DNA of 20,000 bases from an uncultured virus (IMG/VR IMGVR_UViG_3300000558_000068) (IMGVR_UViG_3300000558_000068:55018-75017); one strand, 5' to 3'. Counted from the first letter of the stretch, positions 2,582 through 17,726 are shown. Notes: generated from the sequence alone by a model not told the origin. Made by a program: numbers and translations.

Positions 2582-2855
2582 GCGATAAGTTACTATCAAT
2601 CTTGTAACAAATATGATCAAAATTCGTTACATCTTCCTCGCTTAAAATAAACCATTCACTTACTGCTCTCTTATAATTCCACAATCTATGTATAACTGCT
2701 TCGACCATATAAGGATTTTGGCATGGAACGGATTTAATAAGTTCCAATATGTTACCATTACCGGTTTGATTTTCTTTTAATCGTTTATTGACATGTTTAG
2801 ATACGCCAATTTTATACAAATCCGAATCGTCCTGATGTATTAAGTAAACATTCAT
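2547..2855 (-). CDS. T5orf172/MUG113 family (GIY-YIG-like) protein
   Basis: VYLI..LYKIGVSK..KRLK..QTGN..E..IHR..R..EWF pattern. Confidence 0.85.
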   Translation of the reverse strand: MNVYLIHQDDSDLYKIGVSKHVNKRLKENQTGNGNILELIKSVPCQNPYMVEAVIHRLWNYKRAVSEWFILSEEDVTNFDHICYKIDSNLSLIYNGDNDYKI

Positions 2856-3532
2856 TAGTTAAAAAGATATTTCCATTTATATAATATCCGTTTTTGTTGC
2901 TCTTTAATTGTATCATTTCGAAGAATTCCTTTTTGATTTCTTTTTTTGGGGAACTTTCGCAAATTCCAAGCATCTTCAAAACTCATACATCCCTGTTCTG
3001 TTAGTTTTTCAATCGGACCCAGTTTAAATTTACTAGCATTTTTATTAATTAGGTAAATACGTTCAAATTCATTATCCAGCAACACATCGAATTTTTCACT
3101 GAACAATGTTTTTAATTTATCTAAGAATCCGCTATTTGAATATATTTTCCAATTGTCTGGTGTATGAAACGAAAATTTTATAACTAGTGGATGCTTTGTC
3201 CTAATAAAGTCGTCAATTATTTTAAAAGCAGTTGCTGTCATTTTCATCCAATTTGCTGGAGTTTTTAATTCATTACTCATATCAGATTTAAATTGCCAAG
3301 ATACATCATAATAAACATCAATTTTGTCGTTATAGAAGTAGTAATTGTTTAAATCGTTGTTGTTTGGTTTCCGGGTAAAATAAAAAACACCTTTAACTCC
3401 ATTTTCATCAACATCATATTCCATATCACTCTTTTTAATAATATTGGAAAATGGTCTATCAAACGACTCATTTATTTGGTATTTAATAAACAATGTGTCT
3501 TTAATTACTTTTTTTATTAACTCTTCTCTCAT
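2855..3532 (-). CDS. Hypothetical phage protein
   Basis: 225-aa ORF, 4 nt downstream of the helicase stop and coupled to the next gene by a TAATG overlap. Confidence 0.75.
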   Translation of the reverse strand: MREELIKKVIKDTLFIKYQINESFDRPFSNIIKKSDMEYDVDENGVKGVFYFTRKPNNNDLNNYYFYNDKIDVYYDVSWQFKSDMSNELKTPANWMKMTATAFKIIDDFIRTKHPLVIKFSFHTPDNWKIYSNSGFLDKLKTLFSEKFDVLLDNEFERIYLINKNASKFKLGPIEKLTEQGCMSFEDAWNLRKFPKKRNQKGILRNDTIKEQQKRILYKWKYLFN

Positions 3533-3536
3533 ATTT

Positions 3537-6437
3537 TTATTTTTTTAATTTCTGAATAACACTTTTAAATATATCATCGTCTAAATTTGAATCCCCCATT
3601 ACTTGATCAATAACTTTAATTTTCTTCATAAGTGCGTGATATAGATGGAGATCCAGAGTTTCTGATACTATGTTATAATACACGTTTACCACCTTTTTAG
3701 TTCCAATACGATAACACCTATCTTGTGCTTGAAGATGATCTGCCGGCAACCAAGATAAATCATTAAAGACAACCAATTCGGCCGCTGTTAATGTAATACC
3801 AACACCTGCAGATATAATATTACCAATAAATACCTTAACATTGGGATCGTTTTGGAATCGTTCGATAGATTCCTCACGATTATTTTTTGACATTGGCCCG
3901 TGGTGTATAACTGACATTTTACCGAAATGATTGTGTAATTGTAATAGAGGCTCAGTGAAATTGGTAAAGATAACAACCTTTTTACCTTCTTCTATTGCGT
4001 TTTCAACGATTTCAATGGTAAATTCAACTTTAGATAGAGCTAAAAATTGACGTAATTTAACTAATTGTGACAAATGAAGAGCGAGATTTACAGTTTTTTG
4101 ATGATCAGCCCATGTTTGATATTCCCCAACAATTTTTTGGTATTCTTCCTTACATTGTAATGGGAGATAAATGGGCTGTACAATCTTTTCTGGTAGATCT
4201 AATATATCTTCTTTTCTTCGTCTTAAAATAACATCTTGGGTACAATTATGCAATTCTTCTAAATTACTAGCACCTTTGGTATCCCATATTTTCCTCCCAC
4301 CCCTACCATAAAATTGTTTACCAGCACAATACCGGATAACATAGCCCATCCAACTACGGGCCAGACGATGTTTACATAAGGCTAATAAATTATACAAATC
4401 AATTGGCCGATTAGTAACTGGCGTCCCAGTCAATAACCATACACGTTTAATGTTTTTGGATAAATCATTAAATATTTTAGCGCGCTGGCTTTGTTGGTTT
4501 TTTGTATAGTGGCAATTACTAACCAAAATGTTATTAGCAAAATAATTATGATTGTCGTTTATTTCGAGATTATAAACTGTTGTATTTTTTGAGCCACCAG
4601 ATTTGGGTCTTGATCTACTTCTTTGTTCCAAAACCTCAACACTTTCCACCCTAACGCATTTAACACTTCCGTTTTGCGATGATCCAAAAATTTCCATTTT
4701 TTCATTTTGTGGGTATTTCCATCGATTTCGATTGATATTTTTAATTCGGGATGAGCAATATCTGGCGAATAATGGAAGGGTAAAGAAGGAAACTGGTCGA
4801 AGACTTCTTTTGTTTTTATTGGAAACTCTAACATCCATCGATGATCCATCTGAAATAGTATATCGTATATTATTTTTTGTTGTTTGGTTATCTGACCGTT
4901 TCCACCACGAGATAAAAATGTTCGGCCTTTCATTTTTTCCGTCATTTTTTCTTTCACGCCCGGTTTTGACATTAGCGGATCGTTTTTTAATCGGTCTGAT
5001 AATTGTTGTATTAATTCTGGCCTTTTTTGAAAAGTCAATTTGTGTGTAATTGATGACTTTTGATAAACTGTTTCGTTGTGTATCTTTGCAAATTTCTCTG
5101 GCTGTCTCATTGTCCCTTTTGCTGAACAAGATCGACAACAAAATCGTCTTTTGTCTGACGGTTTTTTTGTAAATTCGATTCCACATTCTTGACAAATTTG
5201 TATAATTCGTGGCCTTTTTCTTTTTAATGTGTTTGATATTCGTATATTCACTTCCTGATCTCTGGATGAGCAAAGAATCGAACAGTGTTTGCTTTTGTTG
5301 TATTTTTGCCGCTTGGTTAATTCCTTCTGACAAACCAAACAATGTGTCGTTTGGTTTAATTTTATTTGCTTTGACATATCCTTCATTTTTAATAAATATT
5401 TTATGGTTTGGTGTGCATTCGATAATTAATCCGTTATTTGTTTTTATTTTTAATAGTCTGTTGCTTGTTTCATTTTTTATCCATCTAATGATTTTTTTAT
5501 GCTCTAATTTATTTGTTTTTAAATTATAACTTAATATTTGTACATTCAAATTATTTTCAACAATGTCACCTATTTTCATTTGCCCGAATTCGGTTGTTAC
5601 TAAAGTATTATATGTAAAACACTCATCCCCAATAATTATATCAAAATTTTCATCTACTATTGTCGTAATTAATAACTGATCTTTTTTTCTTTTATCCGGA
5701 ACTGTATGGAAATTTTTAAGAATATCATAATTAACTATTGTCCATTTCCCGCCCGATATCCATTCACTTCCATTAATGATATTAATTTGCCGTGTAGATT
5801 CTAACATTTCGATTTCTTTTTTCCAGTTTAATTTTAACGATGCTGGGCACACAATTAATATCTTTTCTGATTTAGACTCTATCGATGCAACAATTGATTC
5901 ATAGCTTTTTCCTAACCCGCAATCGTCAGCTAATATAAACCTATCATTCTCTAATAACTTAATAATACCTTCAATTTGATATTTATATGGTTTTCTTTCA
6001 TAGTTATCCCAATGGTCTTCCGAGAATTCTATTTTATTTATTGCTTTGGGTTTAATTATTGAATGTTTTGGTATCCACAAGTCCACACATTTATCATCTT
6101 CCCAAATCTTTCCCCATATATGAATAGCCTTATCTGTATTTGATAATAGTTTTTGAATGTATATCTTGGTTGGTTTCTCTACACATAAAAATTTCTTTTG
6201 TAATTCTTCTCCACAATAACCATCAATATTGTACCACTTATTAATTCCTATTACTTTCTTATCATAATTCTTAACAACGTATTCAGATATTTTTCGCCCA
6301 AATGTAGTTTCACCATTAAGAACCCGGTTTTTTAATATAAGCAAGAAATTGTTATTACCACTATAATCTTTTAAAATGGTAATAGCACGTTTTTCAACTG
6401 GCTGGTATTTTAGCTCGTTAATTTGACTTTCATCCAT
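3537..6437 (-). CDS. SNF2/HARP-like helicase precursor containing an intein (966 aa; about 597 aa after splicing)
   Basis: Motifs: I ILADDCGLGKS, Ia VCPASLKLNW, II DE/CH split by the intein, III LTGTP, IV VVIFT, V GVGITLTAA, VI QAQDRCYRIG. Start moved to the ATG at 6437 (MDESQ) because the longer ORF overlaps the neck gene on the opposite strand. Confidence 0.92.
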   Translation of the reverse strand: MDESQINELKYQPVEKRAITILKDYSGNNNFLLILKNRVLNGETTFGRKISEYVVKNYDKKVIGINKWYNIDGYCGEELQKKFLCVEKPTKIYIQKLLSNTDKAIHIWGKIWEDDKCVDLWIPKHSIIKPKAINKIEFSEDHWDNYERKPYKYQIEGIIKLLENDRFILADDCGLGKSYESIVASIESKSEKILIVCPASLKLNWKKEIEMLESTRQINIINGSEWISGGKWTIVNYDILKNFHTVPDKRKKDQLLITTIVDENFDIIIGDECFTYNTLVTTEFGQMKIGDIVENNLNVQILSYNLKTNKLEHKKIIRWIKNETSNRLLKIKTNNGLIIECTPNHKIFIKNEGYVKANKIKPNDTLFGLSEGINQAAKIQQKQTLFDSLLIQRSGSEYTNIKHIKKKKATNYTNLSRMWNRIYKKTVRQKTILLSILFSKRDNETAREICKDTQRNSLSKVINYTQIDFSKKARINTTIIRPIKKRSANVKTGRERKNDGKNERPNIFISWWKRSDNQTTKNNIRYTISDGSSMDVRVSNKNKRSLRPVSFFTLPLFARYCSSRIKNINRNRWKYPQNEKMEIFGSSQNGSVKCVRVESVEVLEQRSRSRPKSGGSKNTTVYNLEINDNHNYFANNILVSNCHYTKNQQSQRAKIFNDLSKNIKRVWLLTGTPVTNRPIDLYNLLALCKHRLARSWMGYVIRYCAGKQFYGRGGRKIWDTKGASNLEELHNCTQDVILRRRKEDILDLPEKIVQPIYLPLQCKEEYQKIVGEYQTWADHQKTVNLALHLSQLVKLRQFLALSKVEFTIEIVENAIEEGKKVVIFTNFTEPLLQLHNHFGKMSVIHHGPMSKNNREESIERFQNDPNVKVFIGNIISAGVGITLTAAELVVFNDLSWLPADHLQAQDRCYRIGTKKVVNVYYNIVSETLDLHLYHALMKKIKVIDQVMGDSNLDDDIFKSVIQKLKK
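4559..5377 (-). CDS. Zn-finger + DUF559/Vsr-like PD-(D/E)xK endonuclease nested in the +1 frame of the intein (alternative start 5386)
   Basis: Two CxxC..CSxxC/CCxxC Zn-ribbon units, a NUMOD3-like KEKMTEKMKG segment, and C-terminal PDIA..ISIEIDGNTH..D..K...L..LGWKVLRFWN.EV typical of DUF559. TATTTAT lies 14 nt upstream of the ATG at 5377. Confidence 0.88.
   Translation of the reverse strand: MSKQIKLNQTTHCLVCQKELTKRQKYNKSKHCSILCSSRDQEVNIRISNTLKRKRPRIIQICQECGIEFTKKPSDKRRFCCRSCSAKGTMRQPEKFAKIHNETVYQKSSITHKLTFQKRPELIQQLSDRLKNDPLMSKPGVKEKMTEKMKGRTFLSRGGNGQITKQQKIIYDILFQMDHRWMLEFPIKTKEVFDQFPSLPFHYSPDIAHPELKISIEIDGNTHKMKKWKFLDHRKTEVLNALGWKVLRFWNKEVDQDPNLVAQKIQQFIISK
5392..5398 (-). promoter_or_regulatory. 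TATTTAT motif (putative phage late promoter) 14 nt upstream of the nested endonuclease ATG
   Basis: Minus strand reads aaTATTTATtaaaaatgaaggatATG. Spacing matches the motif copies before 6482, 16125 and 18991. Confidence 0.55.
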
Positions 6438-6442
6438 ACAAA

Positions 6443-6467
6443 ATAAATATAATTGACGGATATTTAT
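6443..6467. promoter_or_regulatory. Divergent pair of TATTTAT motifs between the helicase (-) and neck gene (+)
   Basis: gaTATTTATt at 6461-6467 (+), 14 nt before ATG 6482. ATAAATA at 6443-6449 is TATTTAT on (-), 5 nt before ATG 6437. Confidence 0.55.
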
Positions 6468-6481
6468 TGTAAAGATTAAAA

Positions 6482-7000
6482 ATGAGTCAAAACATTGTGC
6501 CAATAAACAGAAATTCGAAATTCTACGGACTAAATGACATGCAAACAGAGATAAACATGGGTAGGGAATATATCGAGGGTGACATAGATTTTCGTGTTGT
6601 CTTATACCGGGTTGATCATGAAAAAACAAACACGGACGATTTATATGGTGAAGTTGAAGCCTATCAAATAAAATATAAATCACCAATAGAATTAAGTTGC
6701 TCAGTATCGTTAAAACCAAAACAAAATAAACAATATGGGACTAACGCATCACTAATTAGAGAAGAATGGGGTAATCTTGAATTTAACGTGTATGAAGAAC
6801 AATTAAAAGAACTTGATATTGAGATTAATAAAGGAGACTACGTTGGATATCCTGTCCGCGAGAATTTTTTTAAGTATTTTAGCGTGGTTGATAATGATAA
6901 GGTTAATGATGACACAACCAGATTATTGGGATTGAAAAAAGGGTTCTATCGTCATATCGTGTGTACACCAACAGATAACAGCGAATTTATGGTTAATTAA
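6482..7000 (+). CDS. Neck / head-closure protein (T4 gp14-like)
   Basis: VVLYRVD..T..DDLYGE...Y..P.E pattern typical of gp14-like proteins; position upstream of the tail terminator and sheath. Confidence 0.65.
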   Translation: MSQNIVPINRNSKFYGLNDMQTEINMGREYIEGDIDFRVVLYRVDHEKTNTDDLYGEVEAYQIKYKSPIELSCSVSLKPKQNKQYGTNASLIREEWGNLEFNVYEEQLKELDIEINKGDYVGYPVRENFFKYFSVVDNDKVNDDTTRLLGLKKGFYRHIVCTPTDNSEFMVN

Positions 7001-11339: not shown

Positions 11340-14288
11340 ATGAGTAGTAAGATAATAGTTAGTCCGGGAATCTATACCAGCGAGCGTTCTTTAGATTTTA
11401 TAACATCCTCAATAGGTATAACAACATTAGGTTTAGTTGGCGAAGCCCCTAAAGGTCCCGCTTTTGAACCAGTATTCATTAGAAATTTCGAAGAATATAC
11501 AACCTTTTTTGGTGGTTTAAATCCATCAAAATATCCGGCCCTACCGTCATTACCAAAATTTGAGATGGGATATGTGGCTCGTCAATATCTAAAACAATCC
11601 AATCAATTGTTCATTACTCGTATTCTAGGACTTACCGGTTATAATGCAGGTAGAGCTTGGGCAATACGCGCTAATGGTAATATAGATATGTCAACAATAG
11701 TGGCATTAGGTACAAGTGTTGCACAATCTGGATGGCAAGTTTATGATAATGGAACCAATGTTTATTTCTCATTACCGGGTAGCGTATTTGCTAGTGGTGG
11801 TACATACGACACAAATGGTATAAAATTCTATTCAACTGATGCTACCGGTGATGATAACTTAGTAATGGGTGCTGATTTAACAAGCTCATTAGAAGTAACC
11901 GGTTGGACTAAATCACAAGTATTCGACTGTACTTTCCATATGGTTCGCGGGACTTTATCTGCTGACACATCTACCGGAATTGCTACATTAACTAATAACG
12001 AAGTATTCTCAGCATCTTGTTATACAAACTATGATAAATTAGTAGTTGCGTTGCTTCGTTCAAGAGTCACAACATCAAACGATTATGATATAAAACAAGC
12101 TCAACATTATTTAGTTCGGAACGCAACGTCAATTAATAATATATTCTTAAATGATATAAGTGCTATTAGTGATCCAAATGGTGATTTTCAATTATCGGGA
12201 TGGACAACTGGCACGACACCGGAGCAATTCGATTATACAGTGAACCTTGATTATACATCTAAGACTTTTATTTCGAAAGTAATTGGTGGCGCTGGCGTAA
12301 GTCAAAATTGTGTATTCTGTGATGGACCGAAATCTAAAAACACTCCAATATGGGTTGAAGAAGTTTATCCAACCAGTTACAAATACCTTGTCGATTATGA
12401 AAAGATATATGGAGTAAGAGATATTGTTCGTATTAATGATGACGTTTCAAACTATGGGTATAAAGACAGTAGTGCATTACAACCAATAGGATTTGAAACA
12501 CCTTCCACTCCTTGGGTTGTATCTGAATTACGTGGTAACACTGTTGATCGTTTATTTAAATTCCAATTAATATCAGATGGTGAGGACGCTAACGTTGAAG
12601 TGAAGATATCGTTCATGAATATAAACTTAGCAACTGGCGAATTTGATGTAATTGTGAGGGAATGGGCTGACAATGATAATAAACTAAGCGTATTAGAAAA
12701 ATATCAGAGATGTAACCTTGACTCAACATCGAATAATTATATAGGTAGAAAAATTGGTACAGCTGATGGGGAATACTCGTTAAATTCAAGATTCATTATG
12801 TTAGTTATGAATCCTAACCATCCAAACGATGCTGTTCCCGCTGGTTTTGAAGGATATCCAATGCGTCATGATTCTGTTGAGCCTTTTGGCGGTAGTGTTG
12901 GTGATTTAGTTAATATGAGACCAATCTATAAAACTAAGTATTTTACTACCGGTGAAGTTATATATGAAAATATTATTACTGGATATAAAATTGAAGCCGC
13001 TGGCGATAAAGAACCGTTCTATCGTAAACGCTATCTTGGATTAACAAATATTGTGGCATTAGATCCCGCTGAATTTGCCTATAAAGGATATACTACTAAT
13101 GGTGGAACTTGGACAGTTATCAGTAAAGGTTTCCATATGGATATTAATGCCGCTAATGCCTTAATTAAAAAAATTGACACTCCCGTTATAAGTGAGCCTG
13201 ATAATTCAATCGGATTTGAAGTTGGGGATTATGCGTTTCAAAATGAAGATGATTTATATGGAACTGAATATGAAACATTAAGTTCACGTAAATTTACTTT
13301 CCATCCTTTTGGTGGATTCGATGGCTGGGACCCAAACAGAGGACGTAGAACAAATGGTGATAATTATCGTCTTGGTAAATCTCCTTTTATTACAAGCGGA
13401 TTCCTTGGCACAACATCTGACTATTATGCTTATTTAGCCGGTATTCAGACATTTAGTAACCCTGAAGCCGTAAATATTAATGTGTTCGCAACTCCGGGTA
13501 TCGATTACGTAAACAATAAAGAACTGATCGATGAATCTATTACAATGGTCGAAGAAGACAGAGCTGATAGTTTATTTATAACAACAACTCCAGATATTGA
13601 TTACCAAACTGGATTATTATATTCAGCACAAGATGCCGTTGATAATTTAGATAACGCTAGTTTAGATACTAACTACACCGCAACTTATTTTCCATGGGTT
13701 AAATATGAAGACGATATTAATAACGTTTCGATATATCTTCCAACAACTTATGACGTAATGAGAAATATAGCATTAACAGATAATATAGCATTCCCATGGT
13801 TTGCATCAGCCGGTTATACTCGTGGTATCATAGAATGTTCAAGAGCTCGTATCAAATTAACACAAGATGATCGTGACTTGCTTTACGAAAACAGAATTAA
13901 CCCAATAGCAACTTTTAATGATGTTGGAGTATTAATTTGGGGTAACAGAACTCTTCAGGTTGCAGAATCAGCTCTCGACAGAATTAATGTAAGACGTTTA
14001 TTACTTCAATCAAGAAAACTTATAGCCGCTGTTTCTAAACGTTTAGTATTCGAACAAAATGACGACATCGTTCGTAATGACTTCTTGAATTTGGTTAACC
14101 CTATTCTTGACGGTATTAAAAACGAAAGAGGATTAATAGATTTCAGAGTACAATTAGTTCCCAGAGCTGAAACAGAAGATGAAAATCTGTTAAGGGGTAA
14201 AATTTTCTTAAAACCCACTAAATCATTGGAATTCATAGACTTAGAATTTATTATCACCCCAACATCCGCTAGTTTTGAAAATGTTTAA
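11340..14288 (+). CDS. Contractile tail sheath protein (T4 gp18-like), 982 aa
   Basis: N-terminal SPGIYTSE and GEAPKGPAFEP; C-terminal PWFASAGYTRG, LYENRINPI, WGNRTLQ, RINVRRLL, PTKSLEFIDLEF. Confidence 0.95.
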   Translation: MSSKIIVSPGIYTSERSLDFITSSIGITTLGLVGEAPKGPAFEPVFIRNFEEYTTFFGGLNPSKYPALPSLPKFEMGYVARQYLKQSNQLFITRILGLTGYNAGRAWAIRANGNIDMSTIVALGTSVAQSGWQVYDNGTNVYFSLPGSVFASGGTYDTNGIKFYSTDATGDDNLVMGADLTSSLEVTGWTKSQVFDCTFHMVRGTLSADTSTGIATLTNNEVFSASCYTNYDKLVVALLRSRVTTSNDYDIKQAQHYLVRNATSINNIFLNDISAISDPNGDFQLSGWTTGTTPEQFDYTVNLDYTSKTFISKVIGGAGVSQNCVFCDGPKSKNTPIWVEEVYPTSYKYLVDYEKIYGVRDIVRINDDVSNYGYKDSSALQPIGFETPSTPWVVSELRGNTVDRLFKFQLISDGEDANVEVKISFMNINLATGEFDVIVREWADNDNKLSVLEKYQRCNLDSTSNNYIGRKIGTADGEYSLNSRFIMLVMNPNHPNDAVPAGFEGYPMRHDSVEPFGGSVGDLVNMRPIYKTKYFTTGEVIYENIITGYKIEAAGDKEPFYRKRYLGLTNIVALDPAEFAYKGYTTNGGTWTVISKGFHMDINAANALIKKIDTPVISEPDNSIGFEVGDYAFQNEDDLYGTEYETLSSRKFTFHPFGGFDGWDPNRGRRTNGDNYRLGKSPFITSGFLGTTSDYYAYLAGIQTFSNPEAVNINVFATPGIDYVNNKELIDESITMVEEDRADSLFITTTPDIDYQTGLLYSAQDAVDNLDNASLDTNYTATYFPWVKYEDDINNVSIYLPTTYDVMRNIALTDNIAFPWFASAGYTRGIIECSRARIKLTQDDRDLLYENRINPIATFNDVGVLIWGNRTLQVAESALDRINVRRLLLQSRKLIAAVSKRLVFEQNDDIVRNDFLNLVNPILDGIKNERGLIDFRVQLVPRAETEDENLLRGKIFLKPTKSLEFIDLEFIITPTSASFENV

Positions 14289-15482: not shown

Positions 15483-15971
15483 ATGGCAAATCTATTATTA
15501 AACATGCCCATCAATTACGAACCAAAAAAACAAAATAGGTTCATATTTTCCTTTCCAAGTAATATGGGAATTCAATCTTGGTTCGTGGTCAGCTCAAAAA
15601 GACCCAATATAACCATAGATCCAATTGAGATACCTTTTTTAAATACCTCAACATGGGTAGCTGGTAGATTTAAATGGGAAGCGATTGACATTACATTGAG
15701 AGATCCTATTGGTCCTTCAGCATCACAAGCAATTATGGAATGGGTTCGCCTACATGCTGAATCTGTAACAGGTCGTATGGGATACGCCGCAGGCTATAAG
15801 AAAAATGTTACCCTTGAAATGCTTGATCCTACCGGTGTTGTAATTGAACGCTGGAAATTGGTTAATACAATGTTAACTAGTTCTGATTTTGGGACATTAG
15901 ATTATAATTCTGGAGACCTTGCCGATATTACGATTAATCTTCAAATGGATCGTTGCATTCTCGTTTTTTAG
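15483..15971 (+). CDS. Tail tube protein (T4 gp19-like)
   Basis: YEPKKQNRF, RPNI, AGRFKWEAIDITLRD, EW, YKK.VTLEMLDP.G.V.E.W, FG.LDY. Follows the sheath gene. Confidence 0.92.
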   Translation: MANLLLNMPINYEPKKQNRFIFSFPSNMGIQSWFVVSSKRPNITIDPIEIPFLNTSTWVAGRFKWEAIDITLRDPIGPSASQAIMEWVRLHAESVTGRMGYAAGYKKNVTLEMLDPTGVVIERWKLVNTMLTSSDFGTLDYNSGDLADITINLQMDRCILVF

Positions 15972-16110: not shown

Positions 16111-16124
16111 GTAAAAGTGTGCCT

Positions 16125-17726
16125 ATGGATATGAATTATTTCATGACAGATAATCGATCTGGATATAAAACTAAAGAATTTTGGTTTAGTAAAAATCATC
16201 CGGAGGAATATCATCGAATACAAAATTATTTTAATTCATTGGGTTTGAGTGATAGCGGATTTAAAGAAAAAATTTGGATATACTATAATAATCTTAAAGA
16301 ACGCCCGAAATGTTTAACTTGTAATAAGGAAATAAAATTTGGCGATAGATTTGATCGGCCATATGGTGATTTTTGCTCAATTGATTGTGTTAATAGTAAT
16401 ATTCCAGAAATGTTAGTTAGAATAAAAAAAACTAATCAAAAAAAGTTTAATGTTGATTTTTATCCGAGCCACAAAGATTTTATAACTAAGAGGAAAAAAA
16501 CTAAGCTAGAACGTTATGGTGATGAAAACTATAACAACATGGACAAATGTAGAAAAACAAAACTTCAAAATCATGGTGATGAAAATTATAACAATATTGA
16601 TAAAATGAAAAACACCTGTTTGGAAAAATATGACGTAGATAATTTTTCCAAAACACAGCAATTTAAGATAATAATGTATGAATTTTTTTATAGTAAATAT
16701 AGTGATAAATATACATTTGATCTAAGTAAAAACACTAAAGATACTTGTACATTTTTATGTAAAAAACATGGTTATATAACAACAACAAAAAATTTATTTA
16801 GAGAACGTATAAGATATGACACAATTCCTTGTACTGAATGTAATCCTATTGGTTTTTCATCAACTAGTTCTGATCATTTACATCTTGTTACTAAACTTAA
16901 AGAAACGCCCGGACTTAATATAAAAGAAAATATTAAACATTTATTAAACGGAAAAAAGGAAATTGATATATTGATAAATAATAAATTGGGTGTTGAAGTT
17001 AATGGAATTTATTGGCATAGTGAGTTATTTGTGGACAGATATTATCATTTAAAAAAAATTACGGAAGCAAAACAAAATAACATACGTTTAATTCACTTTT
17101 TTGAAGACGAAATAAAATTTAAGTTGGATATTGTTAATTCGATAATATTAAATAGATTGGGATTAACAAAAAACAAAATTTATGCAAGGAATTGTAATAT
17201 TTGCGAGGTTAGTAAAAAAGATTGCTCGGAATTTTTAAACGAAAACCACATACAAGGAAATTGTAAAGGTAAATTTAAATACGGGTTATATCACAATAAT
17301 GAACTAATATCGTTGATGGTATTTTCAAAAAATCGATTGGGCGTTGGTACTATAAATCCGTCAAGTTACGAATTAATTAGATTTTGTAATAAGATAAATA
17401 CAAATGTTATTGGTGGAGCAAATAGACTATTCAAACATTTTATAAAAACAATCAGTCCCAATCATATTATAAGTTTTGCTGATTATAGATTATTTGATGG
17501 TGATCTCTATCAAAAGTTGGGTTTTGCATTTTTATATCAAACTGATCCTAATTATTGGTATGTTATTGGATTAAACAGATTTCATCGATTTAATTATAGG
17601 AAATCAATTTTAGTTAAACAGGGTTATGATAAAGATAAAACTGAAAAAGATATAATGCTAGAACGGAAAATTTATCGTATATATGACTGTGGTAATTTAA
17701 AGTTTGAGTGGAATAAATCAGATTAA
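16125..17726 (+). CDS. Free-standing Hef-like / PD-(D/E)xK homing endonuclease with Zn-binding and repeat domains
   Basis: CLTC..FCSIDC; three KTxLExYGxxN-type repeats; CKKHG..CTEC; EIDI..LGVEVNGIYWHS nuclease core; C-terminal ARNC..NHIQG..ELIRFC..VIGGA..SFAD..RIYDCG domain. ATG 16125 preferred over GTG 16119. Confidence 0.8.
   Translation: MDMNYFMTDNRSGYKTKEFWFSKNHPEEYHRIQNYFNSLGLSDSGFKEKIWIYYNNLKERPKCLTCNKEIKFGDRFDRPYGDFCSIDCVNSNIPEMLVRIKKTNQKKFNVDFYPSHKDFITKRKKTKLERYGDENYNNMDKCRKTKLQNHGDENYNNIDKMKNTCLEKYDVDNFSKTQQFKIIMYEFFYSKYSDKYTFDLSKNTKDTCTFLCKKHGYITTTKNLFRERIRYDTIPCTECNPIGFSSTSSDHLHLVTKLKETPGLNIKENIKHLLNGKKEIDILINNKLGVEVNGIYWHSELFVDRYYHLKKITEAKQNNIRLIHFFEDEIKFKLDIVNSIILNRLGLTKNKIYARNCNICEVSKKDCSEFLNENHIQGNCKGKFKYGLYHNNELISLMVFSKNRLGVGTINPSSYELIRFCNKINTNVIGGANRLFKHFIKTISPNHIISFADYRLFDGDLYQKLGFAFLYQTDPNYWYVIGLNRFHRFNYRKSILVKQGYDKDKTEKDIMLERKIYRIYDCGNLKFEWNKSD
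16494..16664 (+). repeat. Three 57-bp (19-aa) tandem repeats inside the endonuclease gene
   Basis: KKTKLERYGDENYNNMDKC / RKTKLQNHGDENYNNIDKM / KNTCLEKYDVDNFSKTQQF; GGTGATGAAAA at 16518 and 16575. Confidence 0.8.

Follow-up and report, generated by a model that had tools for sequence, protein, structure and literature searches.

Can a contiguous intein carry the complete gene of a homing endonuclease in a reading frame that is not its own, and is such an arrangement kept by selection? This question is raised by a locus in a 20,000-nucleotide (nt) stretch of DNA from an uncultured virus (IMG/VR record IMGVR_UViG_3300000558_000068, positions 55018 to 75017), here referred to as the window; coordinates are counted from its first letter. 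On the minus strand of the window, the gene of an SNF2-type helicase is interrupted in motif II by an intein, and a second open reading frame (ORF), lying in the +1 frame of the same strand, encodes a Vsr-like nuclease within it (Table 1). Both features had been claimed in a preliminary description of the window, and both were confirmed here, the former by the coordinates, the content and the Intein_splicing match of a contiguous insert of 369 amino acids (aa) at DE/CH (the slash marks the junction) and the latter by a DUF559 match and two Zn-ribbons. Our analysis revealed that the double coding at this locus is real and selected.

The helicase precursor was matched by the Pfam families SNF2-rel_dom (63 bits) and Helicase_C (63.4 bits). 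Its likely start is the MDESQ at 6437, the listed TTG start at 6719 overlapping a divergent ORF on the plus strand. The insert is preceded by the residues IIIGDE and followed by CHYTKN, and its excision would restore the DECH box. It is covered from residue 14 to residue 369 by the family PF14890 (Intein_splicing; 51.8 bits versus a cut-off of 35.8) and contains the residues used in splicing, namely, C1, the TPNH of block B (H73, encoded at 5403-5405), N369, and the Cys at position +1. By its profile match, its motifs, and the DECH box restored on excision, the insert is a predicted intein that presumably splices. It is set apart from canonical inteins, as no LAGLIDADG or HNH domain was matched by Pfam or PHROGs in the helicase frame, and from split inteins, as frame 0 of the window intein contains 0 stops.

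The assignment of the nested ORF to the +1 frame follows from (5621-5386) mod 3, which equals 1. Its first ATG (5386) is found 5 codons past His73 of block B, and its TAA falls within block F (YNLEIN), in agreement with the earlier claim that the ORF overlaps both Hint halves. Residues 206-272 of the product were matched by PF04480 (DUF559; 52.3 bits versus a cut-off of 20.6), and a phmmer comparison with 3hrl_A gave an E value of 1.5e-6. The N-terminal part matched PHROG families 1271 and 2308 (phage 'HNH endonuclease') via its Zn-ribbon modules. A NUMOD3-like segment, which had also been proposed, was not recovered, there being no NUMOD3 Pfam match at E <= 1 in the nested ORF. Modeling of the +1 product by AlphaFold from an alignment of 66 sequences yielded a mean pLDDT score (predicted local distance difference test) of 93.5; the +1 product is thus confidently folded in the model. 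Foldseek placed the C-terminal domain close to 3r3p (I-Bth0305I; TMt 0.77, E value of 1.8e-3), 3hrl (TMt 0.82), and Vsr (1cw0). In the same search, no solved structure was matched by the Zn-ribbon and helical portions at the N-terminus of the nuclease.

Table 1. Positions in the window of the helicase gene, its intein, and the nested nuclease gene
Feature	Position	Strand	Details and basis
SNF2-type helicase precursor gene	3537..6437	-	966 aa including the intein; ATG 6437, stop 3537-3539
Contiguous class-1-type intein in helicase motif II (GDE/CH)	4515..5621	-	369 aa, CFTYNT...ILVSN; Pfam Intein_splicing
N-terminal Hint half (blocks A and B)	5322..5621	-	Intein residues 1-100; AlphaFold pLDDT 91-98 per 10-residue block
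Frame-0 linker	4665..5321	-	Intein residues 101-319; K/R/S/N-rich read-through; pLDDT 38-73, no recognizable domain
C-terminal Hint half (blocks F and G)	4515..4664	-	Intein residues 320-369; ...ILVSN, then Cys+1; pLDDT, sequence
Nested homing endonuclease gene, +1 frame	4559..5386	-	275 aa from ATG 5386; 272 aa from conserved ATG 5377; TAA 4559-4561
Zn-ribbon 1 of nuclease	5270..5341	-	C16, C19, C35, C39 (CLVC...CSILC); sequence
Zn-ribbon 2 of nuclease	5126..5194	-	C65, C68, C83, C87 (CQEC...CCRSC); Cys invariant, n = 66 aligned nucleases
Vsr-like/DUF559 core of nuclease	4562..4906	-	Residues 161-275; RGGNG, D209, E220, D222, H226, D235, K238; conservation, Foldseek, phmmer
3′ zone of true dual coding	4559..4664	-	~35 codons; nuclease LGWKVLRFWN...ISK and stop over Hint VRVESVEVLE...VYNLEI

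Next to its coding capacity, the locus carries a clear mark of selection against stop codons. When the codons of the nested ORF were shuffled synonymously and the stops in the other frames were counted over 20000 shuffles, a mean of 12.9 stops was expected in the helicase frame, 0 were observed, and 0/20000 shuffles were stop free. The third frame contained 25 stops versus 25.7 expected. The claim that both frames are kept open by selection was borne out by these numbers. In 74 nonredundant loci of relatives, 13.0 host-frame stops were expected and 1/22200 shuffles was stop free; because an open host frame had been a condition for choosing these loci, the layout survey of relatives serves as the independent statistic.

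No DNA similarity of the window to known phages was found, and scans of viral contigs with single proteins led to one locus each, the nearest nuclease being 46-47% identical. Relatives of the nuclease were abundant. A tblastn search of phage records with the nested protein gave 40 matches at 25-33% identity, all of them beneath annotated helicase-type coding sequences. In all 7 records that were inspected (Vibrio phages CP-T1, K391, 159E43-1b, 104E43.1, and 1.194.O, Pseudomonas phage MR14, and Corynebacterium phage phi673), the nuclease lies at +1 of an uninterrupted helicase coding sequence with a Hint-type insert at DE/CH; the covering coding sequence was named helicase, hypothetical protein, or 'coil containing protein' in 7/7. 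Searching of viral contigs with a nuclease profile yielded 327 relatives, of which the best 80 were kept (loci of the survey are designated by L and a number). In 78 of these 80, the nuclease match is covered over its full length by a long host ORF whose phase lies exactly one base upstream; in a 79th (L017), which also counts as overprinted, the host frame is still open at the contig end; and one, L083, is the sole free-standing nuclease gene. No nuclease in another phase or in frame with the host was present among these best 80 of 327. From contigs of cellular genomes, the best 80 of 221 relatives were kept and 64 long matches were counted, the other 16 (L175-L190), which come from G+C-rich genomes and match over 58-75 aa of DUF559 alone, having been set aside as a different family. 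Of the long matches, 61 were overprinted and 3 were free-standing.

Collectively, 140 of 144 relatives were overprinted and 4 were free-standing, and neither split forms with host-frame stops nor in-frame forms were seen among the 144. The overprinted state therefore looks stable rather than transitional, and the suggestion of the preliminary description that the layout is an intermediate toward split inteins found no support in these 144. The free-standing copies deserve mention in their own right. In two Clostridia metagenome-assembled genome contigs (L137 at 1570-2180 and L151 at 3501-3908), a free-standing nuclease gene is located immediately upstream of a DECH helicase gene that lacks an intein; these copies could represent either a precursor state or an escape from the intein. 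In a scaffold of Polaromonas glacialis (L124, about 3501-4200), the -1 frame of a free-standing nuclease gene reads a block-F-like string (AVNDFEV...), which suggests that this copy descends from an intein-embedded one.

The hosts of these elements were typed in 70 nonidentical ORFs from viral contigs. SNF2 helicases accounted for 35/70, DnaX-like clamp loaders for 11, ResIII/DEAD helicases for 9, and helicase-methylase fusions for 4; a further 7 had a match to Helicase_C only, 3 had an intein match only or were truncated, and 1 had no match. A Hint-type Pfam match at E <= 1e-5 was obtained for 60/70 host ORFs. Two insertion sites were found in the relatives, DE/C...N/CH and DExH(x)/C, both at the Walker B/motif II nucleotide-binding site. 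Several of the related SNF2 helicases (L010/L022, i.e., IMGVR_UViG_3300010355_000555, as well as L012, L015, L019, L033, and L050) contain a further intein, this one of the canonical type, whose LAGLIDADG domain lies in frame. This second intein is inserted at GLGK (Walker A), upstream of the motif II intein that bears the overprinted nuclease. One candidate, L008 (IMGVR_UViG_3300031227_000438), was rejected as a relative with the nested layout. There, a large protein at 2631-6653 contains several in-frame inteins with HNH-type regions, and it is within these inteins of another protein that the Zn-ribbon modules (ICQECGIEF...), the only shared part, are found.

To see which frame is under constraint, mismatches were sorted by host codon phase in 9 close pairs of relatives. 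Outside the overlap, host phases 1/2/3 had 1103/714/2602 mismatches, with the peak at phase 3, which is the usual coding pattern. Inside the overlap, the counts were 604/279/297, with the peak at host phase 1, which is the third codon position of the nuclease. Furthermore, amino acid identity was higher in the nuclease frame than in the host frame in 9/9 close pairs. The expectation that substitutions in the overlap follow the +1 frame thus proved correct at the level of the family. The same division appeared in the alignments. In 66 aligned nucleases, the Cys residues of ribbon 2, the two Gly of RGGNG, and D209, E220, D222, H226, D235, and K238 were invariant, and ribbon 1 was variable or absent in the shorter relatives. 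Among the 48 inteins aligned, invariance was confined to C1, H73, and N369, and the linker consensus consisted almost entirely of 'x', a few linker columns such as L161 and R298 being nearly invariant.

In the frame-0 model of the intein, the pLDDT of the C-terminal Hint half was ~97 over residues 320-332 and 348-369, and both products were confidently modeled across the 3′ zone of the overlap. The frame-0 strand VRVESVEVLE (residues 320-332) and the LGWKVLRFWN of the nuclease share the same nucleotides, and since these encode a Hint strand together with a nuclease motif, the overlap of ~35 codons at the 3′ end constitutes dual coding in the full sense. At the family level, the most conserved motif of the nuclease, LGW[KR]V[LF]RFxN, reads RVESxExLE in frame 0, and in the model this string is the strand with which the C-terminal Hint half begins. 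At the other end, the conserved 5′ ATG of the nested gene falls within the Hint 'GYV' codons. It is conceivable, and we put this forward tentatively as a rather doubtful proposal, that the +1 phase is locked by true dual coding and is not the leftover of one insertion event. If so, the nuclease core would share its nucleotides with a part of the splicing fold, and two selfish elements would be welded together, moving only as one. Such a lock would explain why 140/144 relatives are overprinted, why in-frame and split derivatives are missing from them, and why L124 retains a block-F-like relic. A hydrophilic linker was also considered as the cause of the +1 phase and was rejected, the mean Kyte-Doolittle hydropathy in 74 loci being -0.97 for the host-frame linker versus -0.95 for the third frame.

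Signs of horizontal spread were seen in relatives of the window element. In 4/4 pairs of loci, the intein was less diverged than the flanking exteins, and this included the part of the N-terminal Hint half outside the overlap. For example, the divergence between L035 and L037 was 0.05-0.10 in the intein versus 0.17-0.25 in the exteins, and between L014 and L015 it was 0.07-0.14 versus 0.27-0.38. Intein-free alleles are available as well: when the C-extein of the window was used as the query, 19/19 related helicases examined had no intein at motif II, and one of these intein-free relatives (L099) reads IADECHYAKN at this site. The nucleases were grouped by host gene type in a FastTree phylogeny, with 10 label changes versus 29.9 in shuffles. 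The clamp-loader set formed one clade (support 96), and the window was located in a 15-member SNF2 clade (support 95). This grouping suggests that the intein-nuclease unit rarely switches its host gene.

In our view, the locus very probably represents a composite selfish element, that is, an intein in motif II of a phage SNF2 helicase combined with a separate +1-frame homing endonuclease gene that lies over its linker. The helicase mRNA would be read in frame 0 through the intein, and the linker of ~220 residues would be an unstructured by-product in which selection would do nothing but remove stop codons. The Hint halves would fold together and excise themselves by means of Cys1, the His of block B, the final Asn, and the Cys+1, so that the DECH box is restored. 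Ribosomes would also initiate at ATG 5377 or ATG 5386 in the +1 frame and produce a protein of 272 or 275 aa, which would consist of the Zn-ribbons and the Vsr-like/EDxHD-type nuclease. The window copy of this enzyme, presumably active, would make its cut close to the DECH codons, in helicase alleles of co-infecting phages from which the intein is absent, and repair would then copy the intein and the nuclease gene into the cut allele (homing).

Several observations weigh against this interpretation. The penultimate residue of the intein is Ser, not the usual His, and it is Ser also in the closest relatives of the SNF2 group; a penultimate His in block G is usual in inteins, not obligatory. The Foldseek E values of the nuclease, from 1.8e-3, are modest. 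No Shine-Dalgarno (SD)-like sequence is located ahead of either window ATG, such sequences being present in 28/73 loci, and the search for an internal sigma-70-like promoter gave 9 sites versus 15.2 in shuffles, none of which stands out. As the window copy lacks a close relative, the substitution pattern speaks for the family and not for this copy. Finally, the lower divergence of the inteins could result in part from the dual-coding constraint and not from transfer.

The absence of close relatives by which selection on the window copy could be gauged bears on the alternative that the nested gene is an inactive relic, with frame 0 held open for the helicase and the +1 frame not yet decayed. 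We consider this improbable, however, since the nested ORF is full length, the window nuclease retains all the residues that are invariant in 66 relatives, and its model reaches the high pLDDT given above. In addition, at 34% G+C, an unselected frame of 275 codons would rarely stay open, as illustrated by the stops that have accumulated in the third frame.

The missing SD-like and promoter-like sites before the window ATG, together with the fact that the start of the nested ORF overlaps translated Hint codons, would also fit a programmed +1 ribosomal frameshift, by which the N-extein, the N-terminal Hint half, and the nuclease would be joined in one chain with no separate translation. This explanation we regard as very unlikely on the grounds of the start region in the relatives. 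An ATG is present ahead of the first Zn-ribbon in 73/74 loci, and upstream of that ATG the +1 frame extends for only 0-46 codons before it meets a stop. The SD-like sequences of the 28 loci mentioned above speak against a frameshift as well, the loci of Vibrio and Pseudomonas phages having GAGG, for example, and the free-standing relatives are ordinary genes. In Vibrio phage CP-T1 (L001) and Pseudomonas phage MR14 (L004), the SD-like GAGG arises from the codons for D-E-V in a conserved Hint motif, and the overlapping gene therefore receives its translation signal from a protein motif of the host frame. In the window, ATG 5377 stands in the context GGATATGT (Hint G-Y-V), which is common to L011, L013, L014, L015, L029, L035, and L051; L037 reads GGTTATGT. 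Judging from this shared context, ATG 5377 is probably the conserved start. The separate nuclease gene of the composite element would be translated from the helicase mRNA by internal initiation. Among the sequencing runs listed for the locus, none was an RNA run. At 5332-5357, 20-45 nt downstream of the nested ORF start, a perfect 9-bp inverted repeat (AAACCAAAC/GTTTGGTTT) was noticed. As a conserved signal, this hairpin was rejected, with a fold z score of -2.1 in the window and no conservation in 12 relatives.

The remaining two alternatives can hardly be upheld. A-runs near both ends of the nested ORF raise the thought of an assembly or sequencing artefact, in which the nuclease is truly in frame and two compensating indels have displaced it. 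Over 4300-5900, the two ends of the nested ORF are bridged by Logan contigs of 4 runs, in which 0 differences and 0 gaps were counted; these runs represent 3 samples of one study, one of which is possibly the source of the window DNA. Moreover, an artefact would not leave frame 0 stop free when 12.9 stops are expected, and the +1 layout was seen in more than 140 independent sequences. The concern about indels at the ORF ends, voiced in the preliminary description, is thereby answered, and we give an artefact almost no credence. The idea that the frame-0 linker is a functional domain and the +1 ORF incidental can draw on the open frame 0 and on the nearly invariant L161 and R298 columns, and it is next to untenable given that the only Pfam or PHROGs family match of the linker is the weak phrog_28517 (E value of 0.052), that its pLDDT is low, that host-frame identity is below nuclease-frame identity in 9/9 pairs, and that the nuclease motif GWKVLRFWN dictates the conserved strings of frame 0, RVESxExLE for instance; the linker is thus without a recognizable domain.

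The source record is a 75-kb myovirus fragment, estimated by CheckV to be 23% complete, and it probably derives from a very large phage. On the plus strand of the window, we noted a tail sheath gene at 11340-14288 (982 aa, with phrog_23 matching the C-terminal 300 aa only) and a tail tube gene at 15483-15971. Between the tail tube gene and the genes downstream, at 16119-17726 on the same strand, lies a free-standing homing endonuclease gene of 535 aa, whose product matched phrog_3339 (1e-100), phrog_559 (4e-77), and Pfam DUF7487. Its similarity to the nested nuclease is weak and is restricted to the Zn-ribbons (E value of 0.01).

The layout had initially been thought to be undescribed, and this does not stand, as out-of-frame intein endonucleases are the subject of two preprints. 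In the portions available to us, Gosselin, Arsenault and Gogarten (bioRxiv 10.1101/2025.01.02.630785) deal with inteins of actinophages in which the endonuclease genes are antisense LAGLIDADG, antisense VSR-like, or frame-3 endonuclease VII-like and the hosts are DNA polymerase, minor capsid, terminase, and thymidylate synthase. They term such layouts rare and propose that a free-standing endonuclease gene invaded an intein. Like the window intein, these inteins are contiguous and presumably splicing, with host-frame read-through under a separate overlapping endonuclease ORF. Unlike them, the window gene is sense strand, +1, and Vsr-like, and its family is hosted by helicases and clamp loaders of many phage groups; out-of-frame layouts, rare in their account, are the rule for the nuclease family of the window. 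Phillips et al. (bioRxiv 10.64898/2026.09.14.751524), in a text likewise available in part, report that the dnaX intein of cyanobacteria holds a LAGLIDADG gene in the +2 frame, and they give frame-specific ratios of nonsynonymous to synonymous substitutions (dN/dS). Common to that case and to the family of the window nuclease are a same-strand overlapping ORF, purifying selection on the endonuclease frame, and a relaxed host frame. The cyanobacterial case differs in having a LAGLIDADG enzyme, a +2 ORF, and a cellular host, whereas the window has a Vsr-like enzyme, a +1 ORF, and a phage helicase. Relatives of the window nuclease are also found in inteins of phage DnaX-like clamp loaders (11/70 host ORFs, as given above). 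For out-of-frame intein endonucleases, both preprints, as far as their accessible text goes, cite Gorbalenya 1998.

A second comparison concerns the 'fractured genes' of Dassa et al. 2009 (PMC2677866), in which, by the sections of that article at hand, split inteins flank a free-standing Vsr-like endonuclease gene. By description, the two systems are alike in having a Vsr-like nuclease between Hint halves in phage genes of DNA metabolism. The 3′ end of the endonuclease gene lies over the beginning of the C-terminal intein part by 6-69 bp there and by about 106 bp in the window. In the fractured genes, however, the host frame is broken, with two genes and trans-splicing, whereas the host frame of the window is continuous, and the model set out in those sections includes no out-of-frame contiguous state. 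As to the enzyme, the best structural matches of the C-terminal domain were I-Bth0305I (EDxHD, PDB 3r3p) and the DUF559 structure 3hrl. The gene of I-Bth0305I sits in a group I intron of recA, and that of the window nuclease sits in an intein. Finally, the ShiLan-type insertions in phage methylases, which in the available part of PMC11855218 are out-of-frame HNH insertions, resemble the window in that an insert read through in the host frame conceals, in a different frame, the ORF of an endonuclease; according to the same part, they differ by their HNH nuclease, by the use of frame 3, and by having no flanking Hint domains. In a full-text literature search, outside of which lie subscription journals and preprint supplements, we found no account of helicase or clamp-loader inteins that hold a Vsr-like gene in the +1 frame of the sense strand.

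The window locus is thus an ordinary member of a described layout, in a large and mostly unannotated family. Gene callers report the helicase precursor only, and therefore the homing endonuclease goes unannotated. All insertion sites are at the Walker B/DExH motif, which fits the published idea that inteins move between host genes via shared nucleotide-binding sequences. The locus also provides a natural example of dual coding, in which a folded enzyme is written in one frame and nothing but the avoidance of stops is asked of the other. For this Vsr-like family, the out-of-frame layout is the norm, in SNF2 and ResIII/DEAD helicases, helicase-methylase fusions, and clamp loaders alike.

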